A DNA stretch of 64,000 nt, from the NCBI RefSeq assembly GCF_057098645.1, contig NZ_CM169472.1; one strand, 5' to 3'. Below are positions 40,801 through 43,058 of this stretch, in pieces. Position 1 is the first letter of the stretch, and each line of letters begins with the position of its first letter. The position numbers are program-made.

Positions 40801-43058
40801 TCGTCGGTCAGTGGTTGATGGTGCTGGCGCTTTCAGCCGTTACCGGTGGGGCGATAGGCCTGTTGTTCGAAAACGTGTTGATGGTGCTGCTCAAGCCCGT
40901 TCTGCCTGCTGCACTACCGCCTGCCAGTCTCTGGCCGTGGCTGTGGGCGCTTGGCACCATGACAGTCATCTCGCTGCTGGTGGGGCTACGACCGTACCGC
41001 TTGTTGCTGGCAACGCAGCCTTTACGCGTATTACGTAATGATGTGGTAGCGAACGTCTGGCCGCTGAAGTTTTATCTGCCGATTGTCAGTGTGGTGGTTG
41101 TGCTGCTGCTTGCCGGATTAATGGGCGGCAGTATGCTGCTCTGGGCGGTGCTGGCGGGCGCGGTAGTACTGGCTTTGCTGTGCGGTGTGCTGGGCTGGAT
41201 GCTGCTGAATGTACTTCGCCGCATGACGCTGAAATCGCTGCCTCTGCGCCTGGCGGTTAGCCGCCTGTTACGTCAGCCGTGGTCAACGTTAAGCCAGCTT
41301 TCAGCTTTTTCGCTCTCCTTTATGCTGCTGGCGCTGCTGCTGGTGTTGCGTGGCGATCTGCTAGACCGCTGGCAACAACAGCTACCGCCAGAAAGCCCGA
41401 ACTACTTTTTAATCAACATCGCCACAGAACAGGTTACGCCGCTAAAAGCGTTCCTCGCGGAACATCAGATAGTCTCGGAATCGTTTTATCCGGTGGTGCG
41501 AGCGCGGCTGACGGCGATTAACGGCAAGCCGACAGAAGGCAATGAAGATGAGGCGCTCAACCGCGAACTCAATCTTACCTGGCAAAATACGCGGCCCGAT
41601 CATAATCCGATTGTCGCCGGTAACTGGCCGCCAAAAGCTGATGAAGTGTCGATGGAAGAGGGGCTGGCGAAACGCTTAAACGTTATCCTCGGCGATACCG
41701 TGACTTTTATGGGCGATACCCAGGAGTTCCGCGCTAAAGTGACCAGCCTGCGCAAAGTGGACTGGGAAAGTTTGCGGCCTAATTTCTATTTTATTTTCCC
41801 GGAAGGGGCATTAGACGGGCAACCGCAGAGCTGGCTTACCAGTTTCCGCTGGGAGAATGGCAACGGCATGTTGACGCAACTCAACCGCCAGTTCCCGACC
41901 ATTAGCCTGTTAGACATTGGCGCGATTTTAAAACAGGTCGGTCAGGTGCTGGAGCAGGTAAGTCGGGCGCTGGAGGTGATGGTAGTGCTGGTCACCGCCT
42001 GCGGTATGTTGCTGTTGCTGGCACAGGTGCAGGTGGGAATGCGTCAGCGTCATCAGGAGCTGGTGGTGTGGCGCACACTCGGTGCGGGGAAAAAACTACT
42101 GCGTACCACGTTGTGGTGTGAGTTCGCCATGCTTGGGTTTGTTTCCGGCCTGGTGGCCGCAATTGGTGCGGAAACGGCGCTGGCAGTGTTGCAGGCGAAA
42201 GTGTTTGATTTTCCGTGGGAGCCAGACTGGCGATTGTGGATTGTTCTGCCGTGCAGCGGTGCGCTGCTGCTGTCGCTTTTCGGCGGCTGGCTGGGTGCGC
42301 GACTGGTTAAGGGTAAGGCGCTGTTCAGGCAGTTTGCGGGGTGATGACAGGTGTTAGATTGCCTGATGCGCTACGCTTATCAGGCCTACGAAGAGCGTGC
42401 AATATATTGATTTTGCAAGATTGTGTAGGCCGGATAAGGCGTTTACGCCGCATCTGGCATGAACAGTGTGCATTTTGGCAATAAATCTGAAACCAACTGT
42501 CATGTCGGTTTTTTAAAGGCCGAAGGTGGTAAACCTTCGGCCTTAGCGACGTTTCCTCAGTTATTCAATAAACTGACGGATCAGTTCCAGCAGCGCGATT
42601 AGCGCCTTAAGAACGATGAGAACTTTATCGAGAAAAGTTTTCATCCGTTGCTCCCTTAAGGGAGAAAGACAATCACAGCTTACCCTTACGTTGCCTGTAA
42701 CTATGATTTTCTTCATGTGCTAGATGAGGACTGCCTCTCTCCAAATTAGAGCACCAGAATCAGCACCACCTGTATCCTGACCAGGACTTAAAAGTACTTT
42801 TCCGCACTGCGGTAATCCCTTGAGGCAGTATCACTACTAGCGTCGGGATTGTATCGCCAACATAGCTGTTTGAATATGTAGGCATCCTGACTTATAATTC
42901 ACTTGCTAGATGAGGACTGTTTCATTTCTGCCCGGAACCACCAAGTCTTGGGCGGAAAAAATAAAAAAACCGACTGTCATGTCGGTTTTTTTATATCTGT
43001 ATTCTGGTGCAACCATTCTGTTCTCACGACAATCGCCGTTTCAGAATACCGCCCATCA

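Follow-up and report, generated by a model that had tools for sequence, protein, structure and literature searches.

The ybbP-mnmH Junction

The window, i.e., the whole stretch of 64,000 nucleotides analysed here (contig NZ_CM169472.1 of assembly GCF_057098645.1), carries the genes ybbP and mnmH, separated by a gap of 711 bp (42345-43055). Both genes are annotated in the 100%-identical record NZ_CP028379, and their nucleotide identities to the K-12 counterparts are 97.7% (ybbP) and 98.9% (mnmH versus K-12 selU). The junction has the following outline:

39930-42344, plus strand: ybbP (ABC transporter permease), left flank, 804-aa ORF
42355-42460, no strand: REP/BIME pair, two inverted REP units, common to "empty" junction alleles
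42474-43036, no strand: DinQ-like/Agr cassette, 563 bp, an insertion/deletion difference relative to REP-only junctions
43056-44150, minus strand: mnmH/selU (tRNA 2-selenouridine synthase), right flank, 364-aa ORF

The REP units, read from the sequence as GCCTGATGCG...CTTATCAGGCCTAC and GTAGGCCGGATAAGGCG...CATCTGGCA in inverted orientation, are imperfect palindromes with many intergenic copies per genome: in 5,425 of 5,426 E. coli genomes, the REP part of the query (positions about 10-154) matches at 11-50 places each. The region also gives sub-threshold Rfam matches to the REP-derived ES036 and naRNA4, and the empty alleles L006, L007, and L009, like that of E. albertii (L015), contain the same pair. 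Hairpin terminators lie at 42490-42514, 42516-42544, and 42961-42994. A first-pass annotation of this DNA had described a gap of about 710 bp with REP units, terminators, and a putative toxin/sRNA pair, and all of these have been found.

A DinQ-Like Toxin Gene

The boundaries of the cassette, ...CATGAACAG(C/T)GTGCA / cassette / AGAAT..., emerge from comparison with the 140-bp junction of L007 and with E. albertii L015; the same comparison reveals neither a target-site duplication nor terminal inverted repeats. Each carrier genome has a single copy, invariably at ybbP-mnmH. Given the single copy, the fixed site, and the lack of such duplications or repeats, a mobile (MITE-like) element is unlikely. 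Within the cassette, the following features can be recognised:

42490-42514, no strand: direct repeat D1, left copy, 25 nt, a hairpin followed by a T-run (terminator-like site)
42516-42544, minus strand: G+C-rich hairpin, inverted repeat I3, with 12-nt arms that are 100% complementary
42561-42644, minus strand: DinQ-family toxin ORF, 27 aa (MKTFLDKVLIVLKALIALLELIRQFIE)
42651-42664, minus strand: Shine-Dalgarno GGGAG (42655 to 42651) within the palindromic hairpin CUCCC-UUAA-GGGAG, read from the sequence
42712-42847, minus strand: part of the toxin 5' UTR that is complementary to the Agr-like RNA, with direct repeat D2 (42712-42733) as its core
42870-42898, plus strand: sigma-70 promoter of the Agr-like sRNA, TTGAAT-17-TATAAT, 10/12 matches
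42906-42994, plus strand: AgrB-like antisense sRNA, putative antitoxin, with an intrinsic terminator at 42961-42994

The 27-aa ORF encodes a small hydrophobic, single-helix peptide that fits the DinQ profile (NCBIfam NF041472 toxin_DinQ, 40.9 bits, cut-off 30) and stays below the cut-off of the DqlB model (24.5 bits, cut-off 35). By tblastn it is 61.5% identical to the K-12 dinQ locus (E = 3.5e-8). In the PGAP/RefSeq annotation the gene is called "dinQ" and appears in a 51-aa version (42561-42716). However, a GGGAG Shine-Dalgarno sequence lies 6 nt upstream of the ATG of the 27-aa ORF, and because the ORF preceded in this way has 27 aa, the 51-aa call is likely too long. In the DinQ/AgrB family, a long 5' UTR can fold in alternative ways that close or open the Shine-Dalgarno sequence. 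That of the cassette is paired in all predicted folds of the mRNA, full-length or 5'-truncated, with an unpaired probability of 0.01-0.17, and no "open" form is predicted; in K-12 dinQ, a stem-loop that closes the Shine-Dalgarno sequence is located at the aligned position (PMC5066626).

On the other side of the toxin ORF, all predicted structures of the mRNA have I3 as a 12-bp stem at their 3' end, and I3 aligns with the 3' hairpin of K-12 dinQ; lying downstream of the ORF, it is the probable terminator of the toxin mRNA. The two copies of D1 (42490-42514 and 42967-42991) are 96% identical, and the left copy, which resembles the Agr terminator, is likely to act as a bidirectional terminator.

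An Agr-Like RNA and Its Pairing with the Toxin mRNA

The small RNA matches the Rfam family AgrB (RF02891) over the full model (1-84) with 53.6 bits (gathering threshold 40; E = 8.8e-8), and it aligns with both agrA and agrB of K-12. Its fold energy is -33.9 kcal/mol (z = -4.9), and its terminator consists of a 14-pair hairpin followed by a T-run. The promoter, which ends 7 nt before the start of the Rfam match, is the sole promoter-like site found by a scan of 42300-43100. As in the AgrB family, then, this is a divergent small RNA with a promoter and a terminator of its own.

The 5' end of the RNA is complementary to the 5' UTR of the toxin mRNA. The two copies of D2 (42712-42733 and 42898-42919) are identical at 20 of 22 positions and share an exact core of 16 nt, which is shorter than in K-12, where the complementarity between agrB and dinQ extends over 30/31 nt (PMC3567139); outside this core, pairing depends on G-U pairs and mismatches. 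The predicted duplex, which runs from 42847 to 42719, reaches -73.8 kcal/mol, versus -45.4 +/- 4.4 kcal/mol for shuffled Agr, and cognate partners pair more strongly than crosses with K-12. The complementary segment of the 5' UTR aligns with the agrAB repeat of K-12 dinQ.

Both toxicity and its neutralisation by the small RNA have been reported for dinQ (PMC3567139) and for DqlB/agrB of pOXA-48 (PMC12365149). By homology with dinQ/agrB, the 27-aa peptide of the cassette would be toxic, and its sRNA would neutralise it. A further role considered for the cassette Agr, anti-addiction against plasmid dinQ-like mRNAs, is unsupported by the two plasmids tested, one annotated dqlB and one dinQ: the cassette Agr is poorly complementary to these copies, with 17/34 nt identity and -30 to -32 kcal/mol, versus -50.8 kcal/mol for the cognate pair.

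The Toxin Strand and LexA

On the toxin (minus) strand, the promoter scan of 42300-43100 detects no consensus sigma-70 promoter, and the toxin may therefore be weakly transcribed or silent. A GATACT box on this strand can be aligned to the K-12 promoter region; to regard it as a promoter element would be a mere guess.

What distinguishes dinQ proper is a LexA operator in the promoter, together with SOS induction. Such an operator is absent from the cassette: 42345-43055 contains no CTG-N10-CAG, and no 20-mer in the gap reaches 12/20 matches to the LexA consensus, a search that in the K-12 control does find its 15/20 box. In the alignment, the cassette has a 7-nt gap at the position of the K-12 operator. 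Lacking the operator, the cassette copy is probably not SOS-induced, and for the same reason the PGAP name "damage-inducible toxin DinQ" is doubtful for it. The absence of the operator is the one small new point about this copy.

Rhs and the Other Alleles of the Junction

In K-12 MG1655, ybbP and mnmH are 7,301 bp apart, and rhsD, ybbC, ylbH, ybbD, ylbI, and ylbG lie between them. The first-pass annotation had placed an Rhs element here in K-12 and none in the window, and both statements are borne out. Homology between the window and K-12 is confined to the flanks, breaking off at 42350 and resuming at 43054; thus, with a K-12 gap of 7,301 bp, the short intergenic region is not a K-12 feature, the one finding by which that annotation would have let its claim fall. 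Nothing in the window gap has the character of an Rhs element, in which a large core ORF of YD repeats ends in a variable C-terminal tip and is followed by an immunity gene or orphan tips; the longest ORF is 88 aa, and neither alignment nor low-stringency blastn/tblastn detects similarity to the 7.3-kb rhsD insert. Since this absence is a structural fact rather than a statistical signal, chance is not at issue. The presence or absence of Rhs at ybbP-mnmH is, moreover, already published and has been catalogued since at least 2009: Table 3 of Jackson 2009 (PMC2935791) includes Rhs locus 3 (ybbA/ybbP-ybbB), Figure 3 of that paper charts each Rhs locus across strains, and Table 6 of Archer 2011 (PMC3032704) gives E. 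coli Crooks as lacking the RhsD locus.

The reverse search, for cassette remnants in the 7.3-kb Rhs gap of K-12, gave chance-level matches only in low-stringency blastn and tblastn (best peptide match, E = 1.0; best DNA match, 12 nt, E = 0.2), while the positive control, K-12 gor-arsR with dinQ, returned E = 3.5e-8. Hence the 27-codon ORF, which the first-pass annotation had proposed to look for at the edges of the K-12 Rhs element, has left no trace there. In K-12-type genomes the sole dinQ-like match, about 70% identical, is the canonical dinQ locus.

The junction states were counted in 5,426 complete E. coli genomes by coverage thresholds of junction-spanning queries rather than by genome-by-genome inspection, with about 105 genomes left unclassified. 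By this measure, 2,889 of the 5,426 have the K-12-type ybbP-rhs left junction (an rhsD-type element) and 1,853 a short junction; of the short junctions, 1,314 are an uninterrupted 711-bp gap with the cassette and about 539 are empty (about 10% of E. coli). An island with an Hcp(TssD) effector and DUF2931 is present in 573 genomes. A close copy of the toxin region occurs anywhere in 1,325 genomes, and the DinQ-like cassette is found at the junction in about 1,314-1,325, or about 24% of complete E. coli genomes. Because 1,314 of these 1,325 carriers have the uninterrupted gap, the cassette and Rhs are alternatives, not neighbours.

The empty junctions of E. coli, which have neither Rhs nor the cassette, are 58, 130, 140, or 240 bp long, and the E. 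albertii junction (243 bp) likewise has neither. Among other Escherichia, E1V33 carries the cassette, L012 a scar of it, and E. whittamii and MOD1-EC7003 genes of the Hcp island. Three B2-type strains with ybbP genes of 97.7-98% identity have the cassette with an IS, an empty junction, and the Hcp island, respectively; such different states in close strains make the site a probable hot spot of cassette exchange. The Hcp island does not appear in the gaps of Citrobacter and Kosakonia. A scan of that of C. braakii L018 showed instead a MetNIQ-like ABC transporter and an ORF of 377 aa that matches nothing in Pfam; the gap of Kosakonia, as judged by its ORF layout, is similar.

Conservation and Loss of the Cassette

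Strains whose flanking genes share just 94.6-97.1% identity with the window have cassettes that are 98.7-100% identical. The toxin region is at least 99% identical in 1,265 of the 1,325 copies, and in 1,135 genomes the ORF, Shine-Dalgarno sequence, 5' UTR, and terminator are all intact. Of the 1,325 carriers, 190 (14%) have lost the toxin start through a 107-bp deletion between GATGAGAACT and GATGAGGACT, a frequency compatible with a dispensable or decaying module. In E2348/69, an IS481-family element is inserted between the toxin and the Agr gene. L012 has undergone a deletion between the two D1 repeats that leaves a single copy: 41 and 70 bp at the outer ends of the cassette are kept, together with a single Agr-type terminator, and this remnant has diverged about as much as its flanks (its ybbP is 93-94% identical to that of E. 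coli).

A close plasmid donor was sought and rejected, with the best true plasmid copies merely 68-72% identical. Three "plasmid" records at >=98.7% identity are 1.2-4.9 Mb in size and look like chromosome filed as plasmid.

Origin and Turnover

Taken together, these results make it likely that ybbP-mnmH is a multi-allelic hot spot of cassette exchange and that the window allele is a chromosomal DinQ-family (dql-type) type I toxin-antitoxin module in place of rhsD. As judged from dinQ/agrB, the minus strand would give rise to an mRNA of about 300 nt for a 27-aa single-helix membrane peptide, and the Shine-Dalgarno sequence of this mRNA would be locked by the local hairpin. A divergent Agr-like RNA of 89 nt, presumably made constitutively, would use its 5' end to pair with the 5' UTR of the toxin, resulting in a block to translation or in cleavage of the toxin mRNA. 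Phylogenetic incongruence in a handful of strains suggests that the alleles are exchanged by recombination, which would be homologous and take place in the conserved flanking genes. Deletions between short direct repeats can, in addition, remove or inactivate the cassette.

Other explanations differ in what they take to be original. The first-pass annotation had suggested that the 711-bp gap might be the unoccupied ancestral junction, its toxin/sRNA module being native sequence that Rhs displaced or split in strains like K-12. The window does lack Rhs where K-12 has it, and since the REP pair next to ybbP is common to the empty alleles and E. albertii, some of the gap does consist of old native sequence. 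Nevertheless, this history is highly improbable. A junction free of lineage-variable inserts should match the shortest alleles and the outgroup, but 563 of the 711 bp (42474-43036) consist of a module missing from the empty junctions of E. coli (58-240 bp) and of E. albertii (243 bp). Thus, the gap is free of Rhs, as had been claimed, but it is not unoccupied. As for displacement or splitting, neither edge of the K-12 Rhs element nor the rest of the 7.3-kb gap retains a piece of the module, K-12-type genomes contain the canonical dinQ locus only, and at most 11 of the 1,325 carriers are even candidates for cassette halves flanking Rhs. K-12 lacks the REP pair too, so that nothing in K-12 reveals which allele Rhs entered. 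A milder version, in which E. coli and its nearest clades started out with the cassette and the empty, Rhs, and Hcp junctions arose by deletion or replacement, is unlikely, though less so. It draws on the deep-branching L012, which carries just the remnant expected from a D1-D1 deletion of an old cassette, and on the repeat-mediated cassette deletions that are directly seen; the L012 scar indicates that the cassette is also old. However, the 240-bp double-BIME junction of B2-type E. coli is collinear with the 243-bp junction of the outgroup E. albertii. This is most simply an inherited empty site, and the shared REP-only junction favours "empty" at the root. Furthermore, a cassette that is 98.7-100% identical between flanks 3-5% apart fits a younger recombining element no less well than it fits strong constraint.

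The same disparity bears on whether the cassette still functions. It might be a non-functional relic, a decaying copy of dinQ-agr that hitch-hikes between two conserved genes: no sigma-70 promoter is recognisable on the toxin strand, the LexA operator has been lost through the 7-nt gap, only a single Agr gene is present, 190 of the 1,325 carriers lack the toxin start, and E2348/69 has its IS insertion. Yet decay is hard to reconcile with 1,135 intact genomes and with conservation (at least 99% identity in 1,265 of the 1,325) far above that of the neighbouring protein-coding genes. The Agr promoter is near consensus, the Agr RNA exceeds the Rfam gathering threshold over the full model, and cognate pairing exceeds cross pairing; we consider a mere relic quite unlikely. 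Somewhat less doubtful, though still speculative, is an extension of the hot-spot reading in which the junction is a dedicated slot for mutually exclusive toxin cassettes (Rhs, Hcp-fused, and type I toxin-antitoxin), and a LexA-uncoupled DinQ paralogue with its own Agr is spreading recently, by recombination in the flanks, among lineages of E. coli and into one or more divergent Escherichia genomes. If this were true, the 99-100% identity of the cassette despite 3-5% divergence of the flanks would reflect a sweep, not constraint.

Significance

The earlier observation that the junction is free of Rhs is correct but ordinary, the dinQ-like family has been described, and the gene already bears a RefSeq label; beyond good annotation, the locus matters little. 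It follows from the 711-bp allele not being an empty site that the neutral or ancestral reference for ybbP-mnmH should be the REP-only alleles proper. The PGAP annotation of the cassette toxin probably misleads twice, in name and in ORF length. In addition, the junction offers a compact view of cassette turnover in nature: it has four states, and in 14% of carriers a repeat-mediated deletion has hit the toxin. It could thus aid studies on the gain and loss of type I toxin-antitoxin loci.

Relation to Known Systems

The RhsD element of K-12 (Rhs locus 3) occupies exactly the junction that the cassette occupies in the window. The island of an Hcp effector (TssD fusion) and DUF2931 immunity genes, seen in strain 4/0 and E. 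whittamii, is another alternative cargo at the identical site, and its annotation, like that of Rhs, links it to a type VI secretion toxin that has companion genes. Unlike the DinQ-like cassette, to which it has no sequence relation, it is protein-based and measures about 4.2 kb; it also replaces the last mnmH codons (1,107 nt versus 1,095 nt).

The closest well-studied relative is dinQ-agrAB, a type I toxin-antitoxin locus in the gor-arsR intergenic region of K-12 (Weel-Sneve 2013, PMC3567139; Kristiansen 2016, PMC5066626). The two share a hydrophobic peptide of 27 aa that matches the DinQ HMM, a layout in which the toxin is on one strand and a divergent Agr RNA lies about 260 nt upstream, a repeat of the Agr 5' end inside the toxin 5' UTR, a hairpin (predicted for the cassette) that closes the Shine-Dalgarno sequence, and an Agr-type terminator; the alignment of the cassette with dinQ-agrA is collinear. 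They differ in chromosomal site and in sequence (about 70% identity in DNA, 61.5% in the peptide), in the number of Agr genes (one in the cassette, two at the K-12 dinQ locus), and in the LexA operator, which K-12 dinQ has and the cassette lacks. The exact complementarity is a 16-nt core rather than the 30/31 nt of K-12 agrB/dinQ, and the cassette is present in about 24% of complete E. coli genomes, whereas canonical dinQ is nearly universal.

The dinQ-like (dql) genes dqlA and dqlB have been described on enterobacterial chromosomes and plasmids, with 14 Dql sequences in the 2016 paper (Kristiansen 2016, PMC5066626). A literature search that included a toxin-antitoxin survey of AIEC, with the 2016 dql supplements outside its scope, found no publication specific to a dinQ-like locus at ybbP-mnmH. 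The cassette toxin is homologous to dinQ, has a similar 5' UTR, and carries the signature residues, in agreement with the definition of dql (PMC5066626), although by profile score it falls over the DinQ cut-off and under that of DqlB. The dql genes stand alongside dinQ in some strains and are often annotated with an over-long N-terminus (PMC5066626); the 51-aa PGAP call on the cassette toxin is an example.

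The ybbP-mnmH junction

In K-12 MG1655, ybbP ends at 522830 and mnmH (selU) starts at 530132, and the 7,301 bp between them contain rhsD, ybbC, ylbH, ybbD, ylbI, and ylbG. The window gap (42345-43055) is only 711 bp, and homology with K-12 ends at 42350, six bases past the ybbP stop codon, to resume at 43054. Thus, the first-pass annotation was correct that the Rhs element found here in K-12 is absent, and K-12 does not share the short gap. The literature already covers Rhs-free junctions: the 11 E. coli Rhs positions of Jackson et al. 2009 (PMC2935791), whose Figure 3 gives the presence of each locus across strains, include Rhs locus 3 (ybbA-ybbB), and Archer et al. 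2011 (PMC3032704) show E. coli Crooks to be without this locus. The source of the window is E. coli, and over the 711-bp interval it matches E. coli O145 strain RM9872 at 100% identity. Its layout is as follows.

Features of the junction in the window
ends 42344, + strand: ybbP, 804 aa
~42355-42460: REP/BIME pair, with 11-50 matching places per E. coli genome
42490-42514: hairpin and T-run
42516-42544: G+C-rich hairpin
42561-42644, - strand: 27-codon ORF (putative toxin)
42870-42898, + strand: near-consensus sigma-70 promoter, TTGAAT-17-TATAAT
42906-42994: sRNA gene, with a 14-bp terminator hairpin at its end
43056-44150, - strand: mnmH/selU, 364 aa

Sub-threshold Rfam matches at 42958-43026 (- strand) to STnc370, OrzO-P, STnc430, and the rimP leader were rejected as further RNA genes. 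Each of them coincides with the A-run/hairpin/T-run of the terminator of the AgrB-like sRNA (Agr) read backwards, and reflects its bidirectional shape.

A DinQ-family cassette, probably a toxin-antitoxin system

The junction content is a DinQ-family cassette, a putative type I toxin-antitoxin system. The 27-aa peptide, MKTFLDKVLIVLKALIALLELIRQFIE, scores 40.9 bits against NCBIfam toxin_DinQ (cut-off 30) and under the cut-off for DqlB, while the sRNA scores 53.6 bits across the whole Rfam AgrB model (gathering threshold 40) and has a fold z of -4.9. Furthermore, the region is collinear with K-12 dinQ-agrA at ~70% identity. Because of a 22-nt direct repeat (42712-42733 and 42898-42919; exact core 16 nt), the 5' end of the sRNA is antisense to the toxin 5' UTR. 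The predicted sRNA/toxin mRNA duplex reaches -73.8 kcal/mol, versus -45.4 +/- 4.4 with shuffled sRNA and -58.7 and -63.6 for cross pairs with the K-12 partners.

RefSeq already annotates the toxin gene as dinQ. The dinQ-like (dql) family, which occurs on chromosomes and plasmids and sometimes beside dinQ, was defined in 2016 (PMC5066626), and DqlB/agrB of pOXA-48 was validated experimentally in 2025 (PMC12365149). The family is not new either. A literature search for this particular locus by name found no paper, which is a gap in description rather than a sign of a new kind of element.

Alternative contents of the junction

Short junctions were sought among 5,426 complete E. coli genomes with a query that joins the terminal 300 bp of ybbP to the terminal 300 bp of mnmH. 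In 1,853 genomes, these two ends are no more than 800 bp apart, and only 1,314 of these genomes carry the module; the remaining ~539 have gaps of 58, 130, 140, or 240 bp.

Junction contents in complete E. coli genomes
K-12-type ybbP-rhs left junction: 2,889 genomes (53%)
DinQ-like cassette: 1,314-1,325 genomes (24%)
Hcp(TssD)-effector fusion with three DUF2931 genes, counted by the left junction of this island: 573 genomes (11%)
Empty junction: about 539 genomes (10%)
Unclassified, by subtraction: about 105 genomes (2%)

The window thus holds one of four alternative contents at a known variable junction. These states do not track relatedness: ybbP is 97.7-98% identical among E2348/69, ATCC 25922, and strain 4/0, and their junctions hold, respectively, the cassette with an IS, nothing, and the Hcp island. 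In strain 4/0 (L091, 9926-15086), the island replaces the last mnmH codons (1,107 nt vs 1,095 nt).

The first-pass annotation had also suggested that the window may show the unoccupied ancestral junction, in which case the module would be native and Rhs-bearing strains would have it displaced or split. Neither part survives comparison with other genomes. By sequence comparison, the 140-bp allele reads REP pair, CATGAACAGCGTGCAC, AGAATCCCCCATCA, and the window reads REP pair, CATGAACAGTGTGCA, 563 bp (42474-43036), AGAATACCGCCCATCA; set against a truly empty site, the cassette is therefore a clean indel. As for displacement, a search of the K-12 gap for the module gave nothing related (best peptide match E = 1.0, best DNA match 12 nt), and the positive control, gor-arsR, was recovered at E = 3.5e-8. 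K-12-type genomes have a single distant match, the canonical dinQ. A close copy of the toxin region is present in only 1,325 genomes, 1,314 of which have an uninterrupted 711-bp gap; the few exceptions include E2348/69.

In that strain (L003, 14527-15622), an IS481-family transposase lies between the toxin and Agr genes, at about window position 42870 near the start of the Agr promoter, with ~7 bp of the cassette (cassette positions 391-397) duplicated on both sides. Three PLSDB "plasmid" records of 1.2-4.9 Mb (H171-H173) match the cassette at >=98.7% identity and are of a size that suggests misfiled chromosomal sequence.

History of the cassette

Convergent ybbP/mnmH genes are widespread across the Enterobacteriaceae, and the gap between them ranges from 66 bp in Buttiauxella up to 7.2 kb. 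The C. braakii gap (L018, 11072-15198) encodes a MetI/MetN/NlpA-type (MetNIQ-like) ABC transporter, and a 377-aa ORF in it matches no Pfam family; this ORF recurs in C. sedlakii, and the Kosakonia gap resembles that of C. braakii in ORF layout. The short Escherichia junction may itself result from older gene loss. Within the genus, E. whittamii (L013) has the Hcp island with both effector and DUF2931 genes, Escherichia sp. MOD1-EC7003 (L014) shows only a DUF2931 homologue beside mnmH before its contig ends, and Escherichia sp. E1V33 has a cassette 99.3% identical to that of the window.

The orthologous junctions of E. albertii (243 bp, REP-only) and a B2-type E. coli strain (240 bp) are collinear, which favours an empty site at the root. 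The cassette is nevertheless also old, to judge from one genome. This deep-branching genome, labelled E. coli SCPM-O-B-8794 (L012, 11096-11328), whose ybbP is 93-94% identical to that of E. coli, has a 234-bp gap equal to the window gap once all sequence that separates the two 25-nt D1 terminator repeats is taken out, with a divergence about that of its flanks; this looks like the deletion scar of an old cassette in a lineage ~7% diverged from E. coli. Among E. coli strains, cassette copies share 98.7-100% identity while their flanking genes are 3-5% diverged from those of the window, as would be expected either of a recent spread through recombination or of strong constraint. That the cassette was ancestral to E. 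coli seems improbable.

Loss has left its own traces. Over its first 31 bp, the 58-bp allele (L008, FDAARGOS_1297, 501-558) is identical to strain 4/0 at 9758-9790, where the Hcp island has its left end; the shared stretch is half of the island's terminator hairpin. The 58-bp allele thus derives from one that bore the island and is direct evidence of cassette loss. In addition, a deletion of 107 bp between the near-repeats GATGAGAACT and GATGAGGACT is present in 190 of the 1,325 carriers. It takes the start codon, the Shine-Dalgarno (SD), and some of the 5' UTR and keeps the Agr gene; the other 1,135 carriers have an intact toxin region that hardly varies. This deletion was seen in M11957 (L004) and EC11 (L010), at about window 42624-42731.

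Comparison with dinQ of K-12

PGAP (NCBI) annotates a 51-aa dinQ CDS, "damage-inducible type I toxin DinQ", at 42561-42716 (- strand). For this DinQ paralogue, both the length and the name look wrong. The 51-aa start lacks an SD and is located within the Agr target, and the ORF that an SD precedes has just 27 aa; Dql peptides are commonly annotated with over-long N-termini (PMC5066626). "Damage-inducible" is probably unjustified for this copy because it has no LexA operator. K-12 dinQ has the operator TACTGTATGATTATCCAGTT, which aligns to the window with a 7-nt gap. Within the window gap, there is no CTG-N10-CAG, and no 20-mer reaches 12/20 matches to the LexA consensus; the identical scan finds the K-12 box at 15/20. 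The cassette appears to have lost LexA control. It also has one Agr gene, whereas K-12 dinQ has two. The SD (GGGAG, 6 nt upstream of the 27-aa start codon) lies inside a palindromic hairpin, CUCCC-UUAA-GGGAG, where all predicted folds have it paired, a predicted closed state that agrees with the principle described for K-12 dinQ (PMC5066626).
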